Part shown: positions 1,469 through 11,368 of the stretch, in pieces
Layout of the letters: every line of letters starts with the position of its first letter
Numbering within the stretch: position 1 is the stretch's first letter
From: a virus
Reading direction: 5' to 3' (one strand)
Length of the DNA stretch: 64,000 nucleotides
IMG/VR virus record: IMGVR_UViG_3300042922_000836
Coordinates: 1-64,000 of that record
The notes under the pieces: model-generated
Told to the model about the DNA's origin: nothing
What the model saw: only the letters and a program-made list of their open reading frames with translations
Database searches by the model: none
Translations under genes and position numbers: made by a program

Positions 1469-4030
1469 ATAGCATTAAACAAACAAATATATATTTATTC
1501 AGTGGATACAAGTGCTTTTTATAATGTAGATGAGTTAGAAATACATAATAACATAAACAAATTACATAAAGAAAAAAAGGAAAAATCCATTGATAAAGAA
1601 AACAAAATAAAAATAAATAAAGAGATAAAAGAAAATAAAACAAAGCTTTATTCTATCTTTAAAAATAATATAGGGATAAGACAGTTAAATCCTAAGTCTT
1701 TAAATAAATATAGAATTATATCTGTATTTGAATCCGCATTAACAAGAACGTTAAAAATGGAAACAAACCAATTGTATGATGATTTAATCGTTGTCCAAAC
1801 TTATTTCTTTGATATTATTGAGGACATTATACTTGATGGATTTTATCTTAATGGCGAAAAGTATGTTTGCTTTACTGCATCGGCTGGACAGATACGTACA
1901 AAGAAAACTGTATTCATTAAAGAACGGTTATTATCAAAATATTGCGAAACATTAATGTGCGGTTTAAATCTTGATATTATTAATGCATGTGGTGGAATTA
2001 ATGTTAATAAATATCTGGCTTATCTTGCTTTATGTAATAGTGCAACAGATGTTTGGAATGAATTTGATATTAACAAATCAATTGTAATTGATGATATGGA
2101 AACTATTGTACATGGTACTGTTGATTTTATTGATGATGAAATTTATAAGATAGAACGCAAGATAATGGATATTCCTATTACTCACACTGATGGTTGCGGT
2201 ATGATGTTACCATCATTAAGTCGAAAAAACATGATGTGCAGATTACCTTGGGTAAAAGGATTATTGGTTTCTTTCCCTTTCACAAAATTTATCCGAGAGG
2301 CAAATGCAAAAGATCCGTCAAAGAACCATGCATTATTAACAGATATATATGGGGTAGAGCATGATGTATTAAAAGAAGATATTCAAGTGATTTTTACCAA
2401 AAGCCAATTTAAGATGTATAAATATTATAAGAGTTGGGATGAGTACAAAAATAATTATATTAAATATAATTGTACTGCGGGAATGTGCAATGAAGAAGAA
2501 GATTATTTTGAAGATGCTAAGATAAATTATCAGATGATACAAACATTAACTGATATGACAGATGATGAGCTTCGCAAAATTGCATCAGCATCACTTGATA
2601 GAATATCAAAATTAGCTATTGATAGGAAAACAATGCTTAAAGTCTTTGGTGTAACCGAGGGAAATAAAAATAAAACTAATCTTCAACAAGCTTTGGAAAT
2701 ATATCCTGAACTTTTAGCAGATACATATACAAAGGAAATCTTAAAACAAATTAAGAAAAAGTTGGTCAAAGATGCAAGGTCGGCAAAACTTGATATAAAA
2801 GGAAAATATACATTTATAATTCCTGACTTATATGCGTTTTGTGAATACATATTCTTAGGAGATAAAAATCCAAAAGGCTTATTGGAAAACGGACAAGTAT
2901 CTTGTAAAATATATAAAAAGCATCCAAAGCTTGATTGTTTGCGAAGTCCTCATTTATATAGAGAACATGCAGTACGGAATAATGTAATAAATAGCGAAAT
3001 AGAAAAATGGTTCACCACTTATGGGTTATATACAAGCTGTCATGATTTAATAAGCAAAGTCCTTCAATTTGATGTTGATGGTGATAAATCATTGGTTTGT
3101 GCCGATGAAACAATAATTACGGTTGCTGAAAGAAACATGAAAGATGTTGTACCTTTATATTATAAAATGCGTAAAGCGGGAGCAGAAAAAATTGATAATA
3201 AAAAAATATTTCAAGGTTTGGTTTCTGCTTATACAGGTGGCAATATCGGTATGATTAGCAATGATATTACAAAGATCTGGAACAGTAATAATGTTAATTT
3301 GGATGTTATCAAGCTGTTATGTATGGAAAACAACTTTACAATTGACTTTGCAAAGACATTATATAAACCCACAAGACCAAAACATATAAAAAGTCTTATC
3401 TCAAGATATACCAGAGCAAAAACTCCACATTTCTTTATTTATGCAAAAGACAAGACAAAAACTCAAATTGAATCTATTAATGATAGTATCGTAAATAAGC
3501 TTGATAAAATCATACCTAATAAGAGAATTAATTTTCAAGCTGATAATTTGGGCAAGTTCAATTATAAATATCTTATGCATGATAATAAGACTGAAATTAA
3601 TGAAGATATTATAAAAAAATATGATGAACTCAATACAAAAAATCATTTTACCATGAATAATCAGGATATTGAAAATAGCAATATTGATTATCTGTATCAG
3701 GAAATAAGGAACAAATTATTAGATGGTTATGATAAATTGTATGTGGTTGATGTTTTGATAAAATATCTTTATGGAGTTAAAAACAGTAAACACAAAGAAA
3801 CTTTATGGATAAGTTTCGGTGACATTATCATTGAAAACTTAAAAAATAATCTCAAAGAAGATTTGGAAAACGGATATATCCTTTGTTCAGATTGCGGAAA
3901 AAGAATTCCTAAGAATTCTAACAGTCAAAATATGTGTGAAGAATGTTATGTAATTCATAGAAAAGAATATTACCGTAACAAAAAACGTGAACAAAGACGA
4001 AAATCTTGTCCACAAATAGAAATTGCTTGA
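1469..4030 (+). CDS. yonO: YonO-like single-subunit DNA-dependent RNA polymerase
   Basis: ~850 aa with catalytic QFDVDGD, RSPH, HTDGCG and a C-terminal CxxC...CxxC. Frame is open to ATA at 1469, 8 nt after SD AGGGGG (ORF track starts at 1502). Confidence 0.88.
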   Translation: MALNKQIYIYSVDTSAFYNVDELEIHNNINKLHKEKKEKSIDKENKIKINKEIKENKTKLYSIFKNNIGIRQLNPKSLNKYRIISVFESALTRTLKMETNQLYDDLIVVQTYFFDIIEDIILDGFYLNGEKYVCFTASAGQIRTKKTVFIKERLLSKYCETLMCGLNLDIINACGGINVNKYLAYLALCNSATDVWNEFDINKSIVIDDMETIVHGTVDFIDDEIYKIERKIMDIPITHTDGCGMMLPSLSRKNMMCRLPWVKGLLVSFPFTKFIREANAKDPSKNHALLTDIYGVEHDVLKEDIQVIFTKSQFKMYKYYKSWDEYKNNYIKYNCTAGMCNEEEDYFEDAKINYQMIQTLTDMTDDELRKIASASLDRISKLAIDRKTMLKVFGVTEGNKNKTNLQQALEIYPELLADTYTKEILKQIKKKLVKDARSAKLDIKGKYTFIIPDLYAFCEYIFLGDKNPKGLLENGQVSCKIYKKHPKLDCLRSPHLYREHAVRNNVINSEIEKWFTTYGLYTSCHDLISKVLQFDVDGDKSLVCADETIITVAERNMKDVVPLYYKMRKAGAEKIDNKKIFQGLVSAYTGGNIGMISNDITKIWNSNNVNLDVIKLLCMENNFTIDFAKTLYKPTRPKHIKSLISRYTRAKTPHFFIYAKDKTKTQIESINDSIVNKLDKIIPNKRINFQADNLGKFNYKYLMHDNKTEINEDIIKKYDELNTKNHFTMNNQDIENSNIDYLYQEIRNKLLDGYDKLYVVDVLIKYLYGVKNSKHKETLWISFGDIIIENLKNNLKEDLENGYILCSDCGKRIPKNSNSQNMCEECYVIHRKEYYRNKKREQRRKSCPQIEIA

Positions 4031-4192
4031 AACCCGCATAGAATGGGCATTAATCAAGGTTTCAAGTAATATTATTTTTGCAAAAATGTTCACTTTTCGT
4101 GATTGTTAAGCCATTTTTTCACATTTTGAGATAATTCCCTACAAGGGAAGAAAGTCTAATTTACACGTAATAAGAGATATATTCTTTACAAA

Positions 4193-4226
4193 GAAATAGG
4201 GGTATAGCACCCTATACCCTTATTTT
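4193..4226 (+). terminator. hairpin, possible terminator or regulatory stem after the RNAP gene
   Basis: Imperfect inverted repeat AAATAGGGGTATAG...CTATACCCTTATTT. Confidence 0.45.
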
Positions 4227-4304
4227 AATTTTAGATAAAGATTATACTTTCCCAAAATAAAATTAACGTGTTATATTAATTAAAATTAAAGGTGGTTAAA
4301 AAGT

Positions 4305-4640
4305 TTGATCCCAATTTCGCAAGAAGAAAGTTTTTATGTCAGAAAAACATATCCTGATGTTTCTATTGTTGTTATTAATCCTGAACATATGAGTAGGTCA
4401 AAGGGTTATGTTATGACAGCAATAAAGAAAGCTTTATATTTGATAATGAATACTAATATAAAAGCAAGACAGGAATTAATCGAGATTTTGAATAACGAGG
4501 CATCGACAATTCGTGAGTATCTTTTAAGGTTAAAGAAAACTGACAAAAATGATACTAAAAAAATCGAAAGATTAAAAAAAGAAACAAGACTGATAGAAAT
4601 TGAAAGTGAAATTAAAGATATCATAGAATTAGGTATCTAA
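4305..4640 (+). CDS. hypothetical protein
   Basis: 111 aa, TTG start after AAAGGTGG. Confidence 0.65.
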   Translation: MIPISQEESFYVRKTYPDVSIVVINPEHMSRSKGYVMTAIKKALYLIMNTNIKARQELIEILNNEASTIREYLLRLKKTDKNDTKKIERLKKETRLIEIESEIKDIIELGI

Positions 4641-4864: not shown

Positions 4865-5831
4865 TATTTCCCAATATGAAGAAATAAAAAGAATTGTAAA
4901 AGGTAAATTAGTTGATAAAACTATTAAAGATGATTTTGAAAGTTTAAGTGAACCTCTTTTTGGCGAGGGAAATTGTTTTAGTTCTGATGAAGTTCGTAAA
5001 CGTATGTATGGTATGAAATATTTAATTGATGTACTTGAAATTGAACGTTATTTTGAAAAATTGTATAAAAAGATATTATCGATTTCAGATTTACATACTC
5101 CCTTTCAACTCCCTATTGAAACATTTAAAGATTATAAAGAAAAGGTAGACATTTTAGTATTAAACGGTGATTTACAAGATGCACAGTCTGTAAGTAAATT
5201 CCCTAAAAAGTATAGGATTCCGTTTGATGAAGAAATGATTGAAACAAGACAATACATAATTGATTTAATAAATTATATTAAGCCAAAAAAAGTTTATATA
5301 AATAAAGGTAATCATGAAGATAGATTATTAAAATTATTATCTGATAAACTTAATGACGATTTATTAAGAATATTGCCTGATTCTCCCCTTGATTTAATTA
5401 TAAATGATGGGTTTAAAATTACAAATAGAAGAAATAAAACAGAAACATGGTATTCACCTGTTAAAGAAATATTTAATGATATTGAGATTATTTATACAAG
5501 AGATTGGAAGTGTAAAATCGGTAAAACAATTTTTGCACATCCCCTTGCTTATTCGTCTGGTATGTTAAAGACAACTGAAAAAGCTGTTAATTATTTCTTG
5601 CGTGAAGATAGAGATTTCGATACTATTGTTTTAGCACATACTCATAAATTGGGTAGTTTCTTGCAAGGTAATATTTATTTATATGAGCAAGGATGTAGCT
5701 GTAAAACAGAGGAATTAAGCTATACAGATGGTTATCTCACTTTACCAGCACAAAAAGGATTTATATTTGTATGTCAAGATAAAGATGGTAATCTTATTCA
5801 TGATAAAACAAAATTAATCGAAATTAAATAA
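4857..5831 (+). CDS. calcineurin-like metallophosphoesterase
   Basis: Motifs SDLH, NGD, GNHE, HP, AHTH; start chosen at ATG 4857. Confidence 0.85.
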   Translation: MNNISQYEEIKRIVKGKLVDKTIKDDFESLSEPLFGEGNCFSSDEVRKRMYGMKYLIDVLEIERYFEKLYKKILSISDLHTPFQLPIETFKDYKEKVDILVLNGDLQDAQSVSKFPKKYRIPFDEEMIETRQYIIDLINYIKPKKVYINKGNHEDRLLKLLSDKLNDDLLRILPDSPLDLIINDGFKITNRRNKTETWYSPVKEIFNDIEIIYTRDWKCKIGKTIFAHPLAYSSGMLKTTEKAVNYFLREDRDFDTIVLAHTHKLGSFLQGNIYLYEQGCSCKTEELSYTDGYLTLPAQKGFIFVCQDKDGNLIHDKTKLIEIK

Positions 5832-5839
5832 AATTCAAG

Positions 5840-6350
5840 TTCGTACTGTGATGTTCTTCGGACTCATGGTCTTATAATTTGCGATCTTGCTACTGATCTC
5901 TACGGAACAGTAGTTAAAGTGTGACTGACACTGTAAAAATCTGAAACTGATTTTCTGAGTATAAAAGCCAGAAAATTGCTTGTAGAACGTATGTGTCTAC
6001 TGTTGGTTTGACAACGATAAAAACAAACATGTTTATCGGACTTCGTGAGTCGATGGTTGGCAGACAACATAAAAATCAGTCAAATCTCAAAGATGGGGTT
6101 TACTACTGCGGTAGTTCTCCCTACTTTGTAGAATGGGTATGAAACCCCAACAAAGAAGATTAACTAATATAGTGTGATGGTTTTTCGACTATCCAAATTA
6201 AAAAAGGGTTACCTTTTTGAATGAGAGTGATAGAAATATTGCTTTCTATTTTTACAAAGTAGAAAGTAGTCGGTACACTACTTTTTATACGGAATTGCGG
6301 TGAGTCATCTGCGGATGCCATCTTAGAATAGTGGTTACGACTGCTATTCT
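5840..6350 (+). ncRNA. large ornate structured ncRNA candidate (ROOL/GOLLD-like context)
   Basis: ~510-nt region with no credible ORF, GC-richer than its flanks, with more than 10 nested stems, long-range pairings and a C(UUCG)G loop; lies directly 5' of the tRNAs. Confidence 0.65.
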
Positions 6351-6357
6351 TATATAT

Positions 6358-6659: not shown

Positions 6660-6684
6660 AGGAAACCCCTTGCCTTAGTAGGGA
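6659..6684 (+). ncRNA. ToxI-like H-type pseudoknot (unit A)
   Basis: S1 AAGG/CCTT, S2 CCCT/AGGG; resembles the recalled B. thuringiensis ToxI core. Confidence 0.45.
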
Positions 6685-6686
6685 TA

Positions 6687-6787
6687 TATACAGTGGTGGA
6701 ATAGGTAAACACACAAATACGGTTGATAGGCAACGGAGTTTTGGAAAGGTCTATTATATAAGGTGCAAATCCTTATCTGTATATCAA
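6687..6787 (+). ncRNA. tRNA-like RNA without a canonical anticodon arm
   Basis: Acceptor TATACAG/CTGTATA, Leu-type D arm GTGGAATAGGTAAACAC, T arm ATAAGG-TGCAAAT-CCTTAT; central ~45 nt are non-canonical. Confidence 0.55.
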
Positions 6788-6860
6788 AGAGGTTGTTGAT
6801 ACCTTTAAATCAAGCTTTATATTCAAGGTGTTTCGCTACCTAAAATGCGAAGTTTATATG
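6788..6860 (+). ncRNA. tandem ToxI-like pseudoknots (units B, C; 36-nt period)
   Basis: B: AGAGGT/ACCTTT plus TTGAT/ATCAA. C: AGGTG/TACCT plus TTTCGC/GCGAAG. Both end in AAG(C)TTTATAT. Confidence 0.65.
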
Positions 6861-6868
6861 CATGTGAG

Positions 6869-6933
6869 TGACTACTTTAGTGTCAAATTTAAAACGAGTG
6901 TTCCCTACTTTAATGGGAAATATTTTTTAAGTG
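6869..6933 (+). ncRNA. tandem H-type pseudoknots (units D, E; 33-nt period)
   Basis: TGAC-TACTTTAGT-GTCA-N10-GAGTG and TCCC-TACTTTAAT-GGGA-N10-AAGTG: same geometry, compensatory stem 1. Confidence 0.6.
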
Positions 6934-6960
6934 CTTCGCTATAAGCAACTTATAACAGAA

Positions 6961-6996
6961 CCTCTCGCACCTCTTAATAATGTGTACCAGTAGAGG
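6961..6996 (+). ncRNA. abiF-motif-like structured RNA
   Basis: Outer stem CCTCT/AGAGG and inner stem GCAC/GTGT; the reverse complement CTGGTACACATTATTAAGAGGTGCG resembles the element recalled beside Abi_2/AbiF genes. Confidence 0.45.
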
Positions 6997-7032
6997 GCAT
7001 TATGGTTTACGGTTTTCCTTAAACCGTTCTAT

Positions 7033-7108
7033 GTGGGTGTAGCTTAGTTGGTAGAGCAAGGAGCTTTTAACTCCGAGGTCAGAGGTTCGATTCCTTTCAC
7101 CCGCACCA
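7033..7108 (+). tRNA. tRNA-Lys(TTT)
   Basis: Acceptor GTGGGTG/CACCCGC, anticodon loop CTTTTAA, T loop TTCGATT, encoded CCA. Confidence 0.93.
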
Positions 7109-7173
7109 TTTATTTCTCAATAATTCTTATTTTCGTTCATATTTTATATCTCTCATTTGGGATTATTACTTTG

Positions 7174-7261
7174 ATTGTTGCCTATCGTCTGGCAACTAAA
7201 ACATTGACGATTTGCTTTCAATTGTCACCTACCGTCTGGTGACTGATAAATTGACGGTTTG
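7174..7261 (+). ncRNA. tandem H-type pseudoknots (units F, G; 47-nt period; CptI-like size)
   Basis: F: GTTGCC/GGCAAC plus ATCGTC/GACGAT. G: GTCACC/GGTGAC plus ACCGTC/GACGGT. Both stems covary. Confidence 0.72.
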
Positions 7262-7268
7262 ATAGAAA

Positions 7269-7300
7269 TACCCGCCCTTTATTGGGTGGGTAAAATTTTT
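7269..7300 (+). terminator. GC-rich hairpin closing the RNA island
   Basis: TACCCGCCC-TTTATT-GGGTGGGTA followed by AAATTTTTT. Confidence 0.55.
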
Positions 7301-7302
7301 TA

Positions 7303-7851
7303 ATGAAAGAAGTGCTGAAAATTTTATATACATTAAACCTTGTAACATATATACTTAAAAATAAAGATGGTCATTATATATCATTACCATTACCAAAATA
7401 TATTCAAGTAGGAAAAGAATATTATGATGAAAATGAAATTAAACAAGATCAAATAATTGATATGTATGTTAAAGATTATGCCAAAAAGAATAATTGTGAA
7501 ATAATAACATCAACCGAGAGTTCGTTTAACATTCCTAAAATGTTTAGTTATCAAGTTAATTATAAAGATTTATATAGTTATCATTTTAGAGATTATAGAT
7601 GTTCAAAATGGCATGTTGTAGAATATTTAAAATATAAAAAATGTTTAAAAAAACATAAAGAAGATTTGATTTATACACAAGAGAATTTTCAATTTGTAAC
7701 AAGCTGTAGTGGTGAATATACAATATCTAATACTATATATGATGCTGTTATATGTAATCATTGTAATATAACTTTTTGTTTAACAGATATAAACAAAGGT
7801 TTCCTTTATGCTGTAAAAACAGATATTGGTAGATTATTGGGAAAATACTGA
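7303..7851 (+). CDS. hypothetical protein
   Basis: 182-aa ORF with CxxC near the C-terminus; start uncertain. Confidence 0.6.
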   Translation: MKEVLKILYTLNLVTYILKNKDGHYISLPLPKYIQVGKEYYDENEIKQDQIIDMYVKDYAKKNNCEIITSTESSFNIPKMFSYQVNYKDLYSYHFRDYRCSKWHVVEYLKYKKCLKKHKEDLIYTQENFQFVTSCSGEYTISNTIYDAVICNHCNITFCLTDINKGFLYAVKTDIGRLLGKY

Positions 7852-7854
7852 TTT

Positions 7855-7890
7855 AAACACTTTCAATTAAATTGAGAGTGTTTTATTTTA
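7855..7890 (+). terminator. intrinsic terminator
   Basis: AAACACTTTCAAT...ATTGAGAGTGTTT plus T-rich tail. Confidence 0.6.
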
Positions 7891-7931: not shown

Positions 7932-9035
7932 ATTTCCGTAAAGAAAAAAGAAGTTGAACAACCGAAGGTAGAAAAGAAAAGATATACTTGCCTTCATTGT
8001 GAAAAAGAAAAATCCGAGGATGATTTTTATATAAGCAAATGGTCAAAATTCTGGAATTATTCAGATAAACATGTTTTATTTTGTACCAATTGTTTAAATA
8101 GTGAATTTGAAGAAAATTGTAATAAATTTCATTCTGCAAAAACAGCATTAATTATTGCTTGTCATAGATTAGATGTTCCCTTTTATGCATCCCTTTATGA
8201 AAGTGTTATAACAAATAATACAAACTTCGGTATAGGTATGTATCTTAGGCTTATTAATGGCAGACAGTATCAATATAAAACTTTCTTAAATAGTTTAATC
8301 GATGGTGAACTGTCGAAATCAGATAAAGAAATAAAGCAAGAAAAAGAAGCTAAATGGTCTAAACGTGATTTACAAAACAAAGATAGAGTTATAAATAAAA
8401 TTTTAAAATATGATCCATATGAGGACTATGATGATTTTTCAAGAAAATTTATGTTTAATCTCACATCCGATTATCTTGTTGATGAAAGTATTATAGAAGA
8501 TCCTCATAAACTCCAAGGTGTTATTGAGATTGTAAAGACATTTCAGCAAGTAGATGTTATTAATAAACAAATTAATTTAGAAACAAATAATAGCACATTA
8601 AATGCAGATAAATTTAAAACTCTAACAGAAATAAAGAAGAATTGTTTAGATTCAATTAATAAATTTGCAAAAGATAACGGTTTGTCTGCTTCATTAACAA
8701 ATAAAGGTGCAAAAGGTTCAAGCAGTTTAGCATTTTATGTTAAAAGCTTAGATGAAATGCATTTTACAGAATCACAAATTAATTTATTTGATATTGCAAC
8801 ATGTGAATCAATGCGACAATTTGCTGATATAAGCAATGAAAGTATTGTAAAACAAATACATTTAAATGCAGATGAATTAGGTGATTTAAAAGAACAACAA
8901 ACAAGGTTGTTGCAAAATTATAAATTACAGAATATGAAAATTAAAGAGGAAAACAGATTATTAAAAATTAAGTTAATTGAAAATAATATTCCATTTGATA
9001 ATTCCTTTCCGAATAAAGAGGATGAAATAAAATAA
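7932..9035 (+). CDS. Zn-finger protein, putative terminase small subunit
   Basis: Frame is open 102 codons upstream of the ORF-track ATG (8238) to ATT at 7932 after AGAAAGGTAGGT, adding CxxC...CxxC; abuts the large terminase. Confidence 0.6.
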   Translation: MSVKKKEVEQPKVEKKRYTCLHCEKEKSEDDFYISKWSKFWNYSDKHVLFCTNCLNSEFEENCNKFHSAKTALIIACHRLDVPFYASLYESVITNNTNFGIGMYLRLINGRQYQYKTFLNSLIDGELSKSDKEIKQEKEAKWSKRDLQNKDRVINKILKYDPYEDYDDFSRKFMFNLTSDYLVDESIIEDPHKLQGVIEIVKTFQQVDVINKQINLETNNSTLNADKFKTLTEIKKNCLDSINKFAKDNGLSASLTNKGAKGSSSLAFYVKSLDEMHFTESQINLFDIATCESMRQFADISNESIVKQIHLNADELGDLKEQQTRLLQNYKLQNMKIKEENRLLKIKLIENNIPFDNSFPNKEDEIK

Positions 9036-11368
9036 TGGATTTTCTATTTAAAAGAACAAGAGAAGAACTTTCAGAAAGAAAGTTAGAGGCATATCAAAAA
9101 TATGCAGAAATAATTCAATGGGGTAGAAAATTTCCTGTCAGATTCTGCGAAAGGTTTTACGGAATTGAATTGTTAGACCATCAAAGGTATGTTTTCATGT
9201 GTTCTTGGATTACTCCGAGAAACGTTTGGTGTCAATCTCGTGGATCTGGTAAAGCACTTGCATTGGATACAAAAATTCCAACATCTAATGGTTTTACAAC
9301 GATGAGAAATATTCAAGTCGGAGATTATATATTAGATTGTAATGGAAATCCTACCAAGGTTACATATACTTCAGAAATATTTATTGGCAATAGATGTTAT
9401 AAAGTTGCCTTTGATGATGGTGAAGAAATTATAGCTGATGAAAATCATTTATGGTCTGTTTATAGTGATTTTTTAACACCAGATGGTATTGATAAATATG
9501 GATTTAAAACAATTAATACAAGACATTTAGCATATCGTTATTCTGTTCTAAGTGCAAATAATTGTTATTCAGATATGTTAATTCCTACATTAGATAAAGA
9601 TAAATTCAAATATATAACTTCAATTGTTGAAGTACCCTCTGTACCGACTAAATGTATTCAAGTTGATAATGAAAGAGGGTTATTTTTATGTGGTGAGAAA
9701 AATACAGTCACTCATAATACAACATTGGTAGCACCTTTTGTTATGGCAAAATCAAATTTGTTTGCAAAACATCAAACATATATTATGTCTGGTGTTGGTT
9801 CTCAATCACAAGAATGTTTCTTAAAGATAGAGAAAATAGCAAAAAATGAAATTGCATCATTTACAGGATTAACTGAATTCTTCTTGGGCGAGATTGAGGC
9901 TAATCATGCTACCGCAGATGGTTTTGTTCATAATCCAGCATCATTTACTTATAAGCTGTTTAACGACAGTAGAGTTAATTCGCTTAATGGTGCATTTGAT
10001 AATAACCGTAGTAAGAGAAGTAATTTGAATATATATGATGAAAGCGGATTTGCCCCAGAGGATTTATTTGTAACCTCAATGCCTTTCATAACTCAGGATT
10101 CAAACTTTGCTTTGGGTGGAAAAATTAATCTTGAAATAGAACCCGCTAAAATTCCTAATCAAGCAATTTTCGCAAGTTCTGCTTCAGATATGAGTACATA
10201 TTTTTATCAAAAAGCTTATAAAGAATATGCTAAAAAGATGTTCATAGGAGATACGGATTATTTTGTTGCTGATGTTAATGCTACCGTTATGTTTAATGCA
10301 AAATACAACGGTAAAATATATCCTGTTTCTTTGTTAACTCAAAAAGAAGTTGAAGATGAGTTAAAGAAGAATAAAGAAAAAGCTGAACGTGAATATTTTA
10401 ATAAATTCAGTGTTGATGGTGGAGATCATCAACCGTTTAAAAGAAGTGTTATTAATCAATATAGTAAATTAAGAGTTCCTATACTTAGAAATGATGGAAA
10501 TCGTAGATTCGTTATAGCTTACGATCCCGCAAGACAAATAGATAATAGTTTTAGTTTGGTTGCAGAACTTATAAATGATCCAGAACTTGGTTATATGATG
10601 GAAATTTGTAATGGTATAAATTTTATGGATATTGGCAAGAAAAATAAAACACCTATGCGGTATCCTGAACAAATTTCATATTTAAAACAAATGATTTTAA
10701 ATTATAACGGTTCTGGTAAACAAGATTATGAAAATCTTGAAAAACTTTTGATAGATAGTGGTTCTGGTGGTGGTGGTCGATATATCGGTGATGATTTAAT
10801 GGAAGATTGGTATGATAATAACGGTCACAAACATAAAGGAATTATCGATAAAGTTGAACATGAGGAATATTTACCTAAATTTCAAAATGCTTTGGACAAG
10901 CTTAAATTATTAAGTCCTAAGAAATATAAGGTTGAAGCTTTTGATGGTTTAGTTGAAATGCTTAATGCGGGGTTAATTTCCTTTACAGAAAATTATGACC
11001 AAAAGGGTTACATAATGCTCCATAAAGATAAAGAATATGAATACATTGATGAAACTGATGGTCTGTCTAAAAAGGATATAAATAGAGAAATGATTCAATA
11101 TACTTTGTCTTTTGAAGAAGAAATGGCTTTAACACAAATCGACTTAGCAAAAGAAGAAATTTATAACTTCTACAGATATGATGGTACAAACGGTAATGTT
11201 AGATATGATTTATCACCTGACCAAGCAAATAAAATGCACGATGATAGAGCATATTGTTTAGCCATGCTGGGTTGGTATCTTCAGCAAATTCGTAGAGGTC
11301 AGATTATTAATAAACCAAAAAATAAAAATAATAATAAACCTCATTGTGTAACAGCAGTTGATTATTAA
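9035..11368 (+). CDS. terminase large subunit containing an intein
   Basis: Walker A SRGSGK|T, Walker B IYDESG, nuclease motifs AYDPAR and HDDRAY. Confidence 0.92.
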   Translation: MDFLFKRTREELSERKLEAYQKYAEIIQWGRKFPVRFCERFYGIELLDHQRYVFMCSWITPRNVWCQSRGSGKALALDTKIPTSNGFTTMRNIQVGDYILDCNGNPTKVTYTSEIFIGNRCYKVAFDDGEEIIADENHLWSVYSDFLTPDGIDKYGFKTINTRHLAYRYSVLSANNCYSDMLIPTLDKDKFKYITSIVEVPSVPTKCIQVDNERGLFLCGEKNTVTHNTTLVAPFVMAKSNLFAKHQTYIMSGVGSQSQECFLKIEKIAKNEIASFTGLTEFFLGEIEANHATADGFVHNPASFTYKLFNDSRVNSLNGAFDNNRSKRSNLNIYDESGFAPEDLFVTSMPFITQDSNFALGGKINLEIEPAKIPNQAIFASSASDMSTYFYQKAYKEYAKKMFIGDTDYFVADVNATVMFNAKYNGKIYPVSLLTQKEVEDELKKNKEKAEREYFNKFSVDGGDHQPFKRSVINQYSKLRVPILRNDGNRRFVIAYDPARQIDNSFSLVAELINDPELGYMMEICNGINFMDIGKKNKTPMRYPEQISYLKQMILNYNGSGKQDYENLEKLLIDSGSGGGGRYIGDDLMEDWYDNNGHKHKGIIDKVEHEEYLPKFQNALDKLKLLSPKKYKVEAFDGLVEMLNAGLISFTENYDQKGYIMLHKDKEYEYIDETDGLSKKDINREMIQYTLSFEEEMALTQIDLAKEEIYNFYRYDGTNGNVRYDLSPDQANKMHDDRAYCLAMLGWYLQQIRRGQIINKPKNKNNNKPHCVTAVDY
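9254..9718 (+). mobile_element. class 3 mini-intein (155 aa)
   Basis: Starts ALALDT, ends VTHN before Thr+1; WCT triplet (HLW, TKC, VTHN); no endonuclease domain. Confidence 0.88.

Follow-up and report, generated by a model that had tools for sequence, protein, structure and literature searches.

Two 41-nt units lie in tandem on the + strand at positions 7174 to 7214 and 7221 to 7261 of the window, by which we mean the whole 64,000-nt stretch of DNA analyzed here, the first 64 kb of the 137,094-base virus record IMGVR_UViG_3300042922_000836. The record has terminal repeats and is that of a phage, with a genomic G+C content of 29%. Its environment is a soil metagenome, the label of the sole sequencing run that contains the stretch, a DNA run that is probably its source. 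No RNA run was listed among the sequencing runs with the stretch, and the contigs of that DNA run over the stretch were only tRNA fragments of other organisms. The portal protein matched no cultured phage by tblastn, and no close cultured phage was found. Searches by blastn returned only tRNA similarity for the repeat region and, for the RNA region against phages, only chance matches (E of ~5).

The repeats fall within a noncoding stretch of ~1.4 kb with a G+C content of 36 to 39%, against ~25% in the flanking genes. ARAGORN placed genes for tRNA-Met, tRNA-Gln, tRNA-Pro, and tRNA-Lys in this stretch, all on the + strand. The last of the four, tRNA-Lys (UUU) at 7033 to 7108 on the + strand (Rfam tRNA, 65.5 bits), ends 65 nt upstream of the repeats, and because of this short distance the repeats may be the final elements of the tRNA transcription unit. 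Downstream of the repeats come an intrinsic terminator, an open reading frame (ORF) for 182 amino acids, and a second terminator-like hairpin, and 3' of the ORF lie a gene resembling that for the small terminase subunit (terS), the large terminase gene (TerL), and structural genes. The tRNAs, both terminators, and all neighboring ORFs share the + strand.

Two noncoding stretches around the tRNAs, at 5831 to 6357 and 6660 to 7032 (~530 and ~370 nt; G+C content of 36 to 39%, against ~25% in genes), matched no Rfam family apart from a weak match to the abiF RNA motif, and further RNAs may reside there. The abiF match, at 6961 to 6997 on the + strand, scored 25.9 bits, below the gathering score of 37, with E values of 0.016 (386-nt search) and 0.12 (3-kb search); its outer 6-bp stem is present, and the consensus is kept at 10 of 11 loop bases and at the two flanking inner-stem bases. 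The abiF motif has been proposed to be the antitoxin-like RNA of AbiF abortive-infection genes, and the match, if real, would give the tRNA region two different antitoxin-like RNAs. A ToxI match at 6667 to 6689 (E of 2.4) looks like a product of chance.

The terminase genes have peculiarities of their own. The terS-like gene (7932 to 9035, + strand) has no ATG, GTG, or TTG before 8238, and its homology to a 382-residue protein (62% identity) of the closest complete relative phage, L014, begins at an ATT codon at 7932, after AAAGGTAGGT; the gene probably starts at this rare ATT codon. The large terminase (9035 to 11368, + strand) has 777 residues, against 636 in L014, and is 75% identical to its counterpart outside an insert of ~155 extra residues (74 to 228). 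The insert lies inside the P-loop, directly after GSGK, and has no Pfam match; it begins with ALALDT and ends with THN, which is followed by T, and it looks like a mini-intein with Ala as its first residue.

Tandem pseudoknot units

Each unit can form an H-type pseudoknot with a 6-bp stem 1, a 1-nt loop, a 6-bp stem 2, and an A-rich 9-nt loop; in unit numbering, stem 1 pairs positions 4 to 9 with 18 to 23 and stem 2 pairs 11 to 16 with 33 to 38. In unit 1, preceded by CTTTGA (7169 to 7174), stem 1 pairs 7177 to 7182 with 7191 to 7196 and stem 2 pairs 7184 to 7189 with 7206 to 7211, with the one-base loop at 7183, the junction base at 7190, and the A-rich loop at 7197 to 7205. Unit 2, preceded by CTTTCA (7215 to 7220) and followed by TTTGA, pairs 7224 to 7229 with 7238 to 7243 (stem 1) and 7231 to 7236 with 7253 to 7258 (stem 2), leaving 7230 as the one-base loop, 7237 as the junction base, and 7244 to 7252 as the A-rich loop, all on the + strand as in unit 1. 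The units start 47 nt apart and are identical at 32 of 41 positions, and with the leading CTTTGA and CTTTCA included the repeated stretch extends from 7169 to 7261, or ~2.0 copies. An earlier sequence-only reading had described a tandem pair with this sequence, position, and 47-nt period, and the description was confirmed.

The two units differ at nine unit positions (6, 7, 12, 20, 21, 25, 27, 29, and 37). Six of these differences are in helices, where they constitute three compensatory double changes (U-A to C-G, G-C to A-U, and U-A to C-G), and the remaining three are all in the 9-nt loop. The same reading had claimed that every stem difference was compensatory, and so it proved: every one of the 24 cells is a standard pair, and both sides are changed in 3 of the 12 pairs. 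The paired-stem observation is thus confirmed, within the limits that there are two copies and that correction of a palindrome at the DNA level could give the same changes, since template switching or repair can change both arms of an inverted repeat together. In each unit the fold of minimum energy consists of stem 1 alone, at -9.7 kcal/mol for unit 1 and -10.0 kcal/mol for unit 2 (3 and 8 of 200 shuffles, respectively, fold as well); stem 2 alone has energies of -5.6 and -7.6 kcal/mol.

Several controls bear on the covariation. With the 3' partners slid by 1 to 3 columns, 8 to 54% of cells paired and no pair was changed on both sides. Shuffled columns reached the observed values in 55 of 500 cases, and because this control is weak with two sequences, a simulation of random substitutions was added. 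Of 200,000 trials in which nine substitutions by any base were placed at random in unit 1, 12 kept all 12 pairs and had three or more double changes; when transitions only were allowed, 342 of 200,000 trials did so. The probability that six changed stem positions would fall into three partner pairs is 0.0016.

Pairing alone does not give the strand, because all pairs are Watson-Crick. A workable H-type knot places its one-base loop over the deep groove of stem 2 and its nine-base loop over the shallow groove of stem 1; the - strand version would have a single base spanning the shallow groove of a 6-bp helix, which is sterically impossible. The sterically possible knot is therefore that of the + strand only.

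Folds of this kind are rare in the genome. The two strands of the 137-kb sequence together have 7 distinct sites for a compact H-type pseudoknot in which both stems are 6 bp of Watson-Crick pairs, and among these only the two units are adjacent and share their geometry (loops of 1, 1, and 9 nt); the other five sites are A+T-rich and elsewhere in the genome. A covariance model of the units recovered only the two copies in the genome, and its best match in 6 related loci had an E value of 0.31. No second example of the tandem units was found, either by exact pattern in IMG/VR or by covariance model in those 6 loci; 10 loci returned by the exact-pattern scan were rejected as single chance matches in unrelated, mostly G+C-rich sequence. 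No Rfam family, neither ToxI nor a riboswitch, matched the units in a search of 7120 to 7310 (191 nt) with matches allowed to an E value of 10. Tandem Repeats Finder, which Blower et al. (2012; PMC3401426) used, did not report the array, even at a score of 30.

Terminators and transcription

The intrinsic terminator (7269 to 7302, + strand) has a 9-bp stem with 6 G-C pairs and a 6-nt loop, followed by AAAATTTTTT. It begins 7 nt past unit 2, and its T run stops 10 nt before the ATG of the ORF. The hairpin at 7269 to 7292, with its T run, makes a strong terminator; its folding energy is -17.6 kcal/mol (z of -4.09), and none of 200 shuffles was as stable. In a fold of 136 nt the terminator forms independently, with no alternative pairing of the units with its arms; because the arms are not engaged by the units, a classical attenuator is unlikely. 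The 3' arm of the terminator, GGGTGGGT, appears to supply the sole Shine-Dalgarno-like sequence before the ORF.

One site upstream of the repeats, at 7096 to 7124, matches the promoter consensus at 9 of 12 positions, in a region that has 9 such sites against 10.6 expected from shuffling. A k-mer search of the spacer at 7109 to 7173 for a common promoter motif was uninformative. As read from the sequence, the gap between terminator and ATG is too short for a promoter; the ORF must therefore be transcribed together with the RNA, at a lower level than the RNA. A second terminator-like hairpin (7855 to 7883, + strand; 13 bp, A+T-rich) closes the ORF, and the terS-like gene starts at about 7932, past this hairpin and ~0.7 kb downstream of the repeats.

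Elsewhere in the window, at 1502 to 4030 on the + strand, an 842-residue protein is encoded that matches the Pfam RdRP family PF05183 (E of 2.6e-15) and phrog_8308 (E of 8.7e-281). We take its family to be that of single-chain two-barrel polymerases, such as YonO and the polymerases of crAss-like phages. The phage may transcribe its late genes with this polymerase-like protein of its own, a possibility that bears on how the terminators around the gene for the 182-residue protein are passed and that would make local transcription control nonstandard.

The 182-residue protein and its relatives

The ORF (P0001; 7303 to 7851, + strand) encodes 182 residues with a pI of 8.5 and has a G+C content of 22%, close to that of the surrounding phage coding sequence (21 to 27%; genome, 29%). 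A full HMMER search with the protein found relatives at 46 and 35% identity, and a profile search gave a family of 14 proteins of 134 to 208 residues, all unnamed and with no Pfam domain; the closer relatives, P0002 and P0014, are 44 to 46% identical to the protein. All members are on metagenome or virus contigs, several of them 54 to 188 kb long, and no longer, fused forms were found. A 477-residue repeat protein (P0003) was excluded from the family, its match being one 42-residue stretch repeated five times. Judged from sequence, the 182-residue protein is a real gene product. No member of the family turned up in 185,579 prokaryote species genomes (GTDB), PLSDB plasmids, or GenBank phages, and a JGI metagenome search found no relatives. 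IMG/VR searches with single proteins or with alignment A1 likewise gave none; a search with alignment A3 found, among the matches listed, a locus that we call L021.

No resemblance to a toxin was detected. The protein matched nothing in Pfam (ToxN included), PADLOC, NCBIfam, or PHROGs, and no ToxN, CptN, or TenpN model; the whole 137-kb genome gave no ToxN-family match. Searched as a single sequence and as 3- and 14-sequence profiles, it matched no solved chain at E values up to 10, in a PDB set that should include the solved type III toxins. AlphaFold models reached pLDDT values of 39.2 (single sequence) and 50.7 (3 sequences), too poor for fold comparison; with these models Foldseek gave no PDB match at an E value of 0.001 or less (best E, 0.12), and a search of the ESM Atlas returned nothing above 0.80 and no TM score above 0.39.

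L021 is a 54-kb viral record whose homologue is 30% identical to the 182-residue protein. The homologue follows an anti-repressor-like gene, has terminator-like hairpins on both flanks, and lies directly 5' of a terS-like gene and TerL; the terS products of L021 and L014 are 35% identical. The 102-nt spacer upstream of the homologue contains no direct repeat and no pseudoknot with stems of at least 5 bp, so the repeats did not travel with the gene in L021, the one homologous locus compared. Because L021 has the terminator-plus-ORF layout with neither repeats nor pseudoknot, this layout can be explained without the RNA. The pseudoknot pair is, against L021, an addition seen only in this stretch, which weakens the view that the protein needs the RNA. 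Since the gene stands before the terminase genes in both loci (this phage and L021), it reads as a gene of a phage lineage.

The slot before terS differs among these phages. In L021 (2104 to 2898) and in this phage it holds the gene of the 182-residue family, behind an anti-repressor-like gene and the tRNA cluster, respectively. No homologue of the protein was found in L014 or in four fragments, and in L014 the slot is taken by an ORF for a very acidic 153-residue protein (4163 to 4624) after tRNA-Gln and tRNA-Cys. This slot, variable among related phages, has the look of an accessory-gene hot spot.

Comparison with type III antitoxins

Blower et al. (2012; PMC3401426) describe a type III locus as tandem repeats, a terminator, and a toxin gene, mostly 1 to 50 bp apart. 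Across the families the repeats are 31 to 62 nt long in 1.9 to 5.6 copies, and for cptIN the values are 40 to 48 nt, 1.9 to 3.4 copies, and toxins of 45 to 213 residues (Table 2 of PMC3401426). The present locus is inside the cptIN or general type III ranges with its repeat of 46 to 47 nt in ~2.0 copies, its protein of 182 residues, and its gaps of 7 and 10 nt. It has the tandem array and the intervening terminator of the Blower description; the third element, a gene for an endoribonuclease of the ToxN, CptN, or TenpN superfamily, was not recognized by sequence.

The closest structural parallel is the CptI RNA of Eubacterium rectale, CptI(Er), whose processed form, 45 nt long and stemming from a pair of genetic repeats, is an H-type pseudoknot of the classic kind (PMC4627078). 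According to the same source, it has a one-base loop (G13) and an A-rich nine-base loop (A27 to G35) that forms an A-minor twist; A29 and U30 are essential for antitoxicity, and A45 is the processed 3' end with a cyclic phosphate. We took the CptI(Er) repeat from the primer table of that paper and checked its numbering on 13 named residues. With the units placed in the register 7171 to 7217 and 7218 to 7264, both have their one-base loop at 13 and their long loop at 27 to 35, as in CptI(Er), and the CptI geometry, in which loop 1 is a single base and loop 2 is long and rich in A, is thus present in silico, with putative A-minor contacts. Also shared are the unit of ~45 nt, the two genetic repeats, and the terminator directly after them (PMC4627078). 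The sequence-only reading had likened the two copies of ~45 nt and the hairpin that follows to the CptI layout, and loop positions, spacings, and terminator all agree with this.

The 6-1-6-9 geometry is that of compact H-type pseudoknots in general rather than of CptI alone. At the level of sequence, unit 2 is identical to CptI(Er) at 26 of 45 positions, including AUAAAU at 29 to 34 and UUGA at 42 to 45, a value reached by 3 of 274,100 genome windows, and unit 1 at 18 of 45. Because paired positions are not independent, we also counted one side of each pair, which gave 19 of 35 for unit 2 (321 of 274,100 windows as good) and 14 of 35 for unit 1 (27,859 of 274,100). The likeness in sequence is modest, and suggestive for one unit only. 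Stems are 6 bp here and 5 bp as read from the primer-encoded CptI repeat. CptI repeats, like those of toxI, are described as near identical (PMC13682666), with 1 or 2 differences in the case of CptI, against 9 of 41 positions here. CptI has its CptN partner, and no recognizable CptN adjoins the units; CptN toxins are reported to accept the cognate CptI only (PMC4627078). The 33 cptIN loci of Blower et al. were all chromosomal (PMC3401426), and the replicon here is a phage.

Other type III systems offer partial parallels. TenpI often consists of two nonidentical repeats, both functional and both pseudoknots (PMC13682666), and in this it resembles the two units; TenpIN also has a terminator after the repeats, and tenpN genes occur in viral genomes, many of them without detectable repeats (PMC12283969). 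Against this likeness, the 182-residue protein gives no TenpN match, and the mean tenpI repeat is longer, at 50.9 nt (PMC3401426). The operon order of ToxIN (repeats, terminator, toxin gene) is the same as here, but the ToxI covariance model (RF02519) has no match on 7120 to 7310 at E values up to 10, ToxN has no match in the genome, and the ToxI unit differs in being 36 nt long around a triplex core. Pseudo-ToxI of Pectobacterium phage PhiTE is an intergenic tandem repeat that mimics a type III antitoxin and has no toxin gene of its own, and PhiTE escapes ToxIN by expressing ToxI-like repeats during infection, which block the host abortive-infection (Abi) toxin (PMC3475682). The PhiTE repeats closely resemble a known host ToxI, and those of the wild type, with 1.5 copies, are unable to fold (PMC3475682); here there are two complete, diverged, foldable units.

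The interpretation of the units as a CptI-type antitoxin can thus be followed in part. Fold and layout fit, and the partner does not, there being no ToxN, CptN, TenpN, or solved-chain match. The setting that goes with such an antitoxin was not borne out either: the L021 homologue has no repeats, the repeats differ from one another at 9 of 41 positions where those of cptI are near identical, and the replicon is a phage rather than a Clostridial chromosome. The RNA half of the antitoxin reading stands; the toxin half does not.

Discussion

The tandem repeat, its compensatory pairing, the CptI-like geometry, the terminator, and the lack of a recognizable toxin are observations, and we infer from them transcription, folding, protein binding, and a target. 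The explanation that we favor, with a probability of roughly 0.35, is that the phage tRNA unit ends in a CptI-like RNA that stands alone and acts as an antitoxin decoy. The units would be phage genes for a small structured RNA, transcribed on the + strand, whether by a start at a weak promoter past tRNA-Lys or by extension of the tRNA transcript, with the 3' end at the terminator at 7269 to 7292. Each would fold into a compact H-type pseudoknot of the CptI type, with its A-rich 9-nt loop in the minor groove of stem 1, and the RNA would bind and block an endoribonuclease of the ToxN, CptN, or TenpN kind, as a type III antitoxin does. The likeliest target would be an abortive-infection toxin of the host, so that the RNA would be a decoy as PhiTE pseudo-ToxI is against ToxN. 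On this view the gene for the 182-residue protein would be an unremarkable phage gene, placed after the terminator by coincidence.

In favor of a decoy are the fold kept by double changes, the CptI-like lengths of its elements, the lack of a recognizable toxin nearby and of a ToxN anywhere in the genome, the gene of L021 that occupies the same slot without the RNA, and the precedent of PhiTE (PMC3475682). Against it, repeats, terminator, and ORF are spaced as tightly (7 and 10 nt) as in a true type III operon, unit 1 resembles CptI(Er) only weakly (18 of 45), the geometry is generic, and no second example was found. A decoy must also match a particular host toxin, because CptN accepts the cognate CptI only.

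The tight spacing is what would be expected if the locus were a true phage-borne type III pair and the 182-residue protein an endoribonuclease of a new, fourth toxin family, made by read-through of the terminator, cutting the two-unit precursor at the unit borders, and inactivated by the resulting pseudoknots. We consider this unlikely, but it has real points in its favor: the order of tandem repeats, terminator, and ORF is that of Blower et al., the length of the ORF is within the family ranges, and the lack of room for a promoter before the ATG, which puts the ORF below the RNA level, follows type III logic. TenpI provides a case of two nonidentical functional repeats, and since the known toxin families share 11 to 13% identity (PMC13682666), a toxin family invisible to sequence search is conceivable. 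Many viral tenpN genes have no detectable repeats either (PMC12283969), so that L021, which has none, does not settle the matter. Repeats are nevertheless lacking in the one homologue examined, as are pseudoknots, and the protein matched neither Pfam ToxN, PADLOC, nor NCBIfam, nor any solved chain at E values up to 10, while its structure models (pLDDT of 39.2 and 50.7; best Foldseek E of 0.12) were too poor to compare. No member of the family was seen in the 185,579 prokaryote species genomes, PLSDB, or GenBank phages, and the gene stands before the terminase in two of two loci; the G+C content of the ORF, 22%, is close to that of the neighboring phage coding sequence; and an RNA of real CptI descent should partner a CptN. 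In its most specific form, in which the protein founds a fourth, phage-borne toxin family that is unrelated in sequence to ToxN, CptN, and TenpN, is held in check by a CptI-shaped tandem pseudoknot, and is expressed only by read-through at the head of the packaging operon, the proposal is a shade less likely again. If it were true, a large lytic-type phage would carry an RNA-gated ribonuclease for host shutoff or for the exclusion of rival phages.

A structured RNA with some other role is a serious competitor to the decoy, though still improbable in absolute terms. The units might be a cis-acting leader that lets RNA polymerase pass two terminators into the late packaging operon, for which the put RNA of HK022 is a precedent, or sites through which the 182-residue protein controls its own expression, or else part of the tRNA operon, as small RNAs of high stability or as structures that protect its 3' side; the tRNA cluster of T4 has unexplained stable RNAs. 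Their place between the tRNA cluster and the packaging genes, right before a terminator that late transcription must pass, would suit such roles, as would the polymerase-like protein of the phage (PF05183; E of 2.6e-15), the terminator-like hairpins that also box in the L021 homologue, and the fact that no Rfam family claims the units. L021, however, has the same gene arrangement without the pseudoknots, the units do not pair with the terminator arms, which makes a classical attenuator unlikely, and nothing points specifically to any one of these roles, whereas a tandem pseudoknot followed by a terminator is a hallmark of type III antitoxins. It is quite unlikely that the repeats act as DNA, as a site for protein binding or packaging, or are a duplicated segment whose palindromes are due to chance or maintained at the DNA level. 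They do lie 0.7 kb upstream of the terS-like gene, in only two copies, the column-shuffle control was not significant (55 of 500), and template-switch repair can change both arms of an inverted repeat together; but there are two interleaved helices, both kept by double changes, all three nonstem differences belong to a single loop, the units have a strong terminator 3' of them on their own strand, and background pseudoknot sites are rare in the genome, with no other adjacent pair. A tandem riboswitch, in which small pseudoknot aptamers such as preQ1-I control the terminator, would account for the order of aptamer-like units, terminator, and ORF, and tandem small pseudoknot aptamers exist. We give it very little credence, since no riboswitch family matched the 191-nt region at E values up to 10, there is no antiterminator pairing with the terminator, and 6-bp stems joined by 1-nt connectors would leave no ligand pocket of the known kinds.

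No RNAs other than type III antitoxins are known to inactivate an enzyme by wrapping around it in the form of pseudoknots. Examples from phages are few, comprising one prophage toxIN locus and predicted viral tenpN genes (PMC12283969), and the PhiTE decoy is one laboratory-evolved case (PMC3475682). According to Nadig et al. (2025; PMC12283969), the prophage toxIN locus and their own viral tenpN matches were the only type III systems reported for phages, and our literature search found no report of a phage-borne CptI-like RNA. In two studies CptIN is reported to have given no protection in Escherichia coli (PMC3401426 and PMC4627078), and it is not known to have an antiphage role. Here, an uncultured phage of 137 kb with no recognizable toxin carries a CptI-shaped RNA that is naturally occurring and complete in its two units. 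This RNA may represent the first natural decoy directed at CptIN systems; alternatively, it may signal a family of toxins beyond the reach of homology searches.
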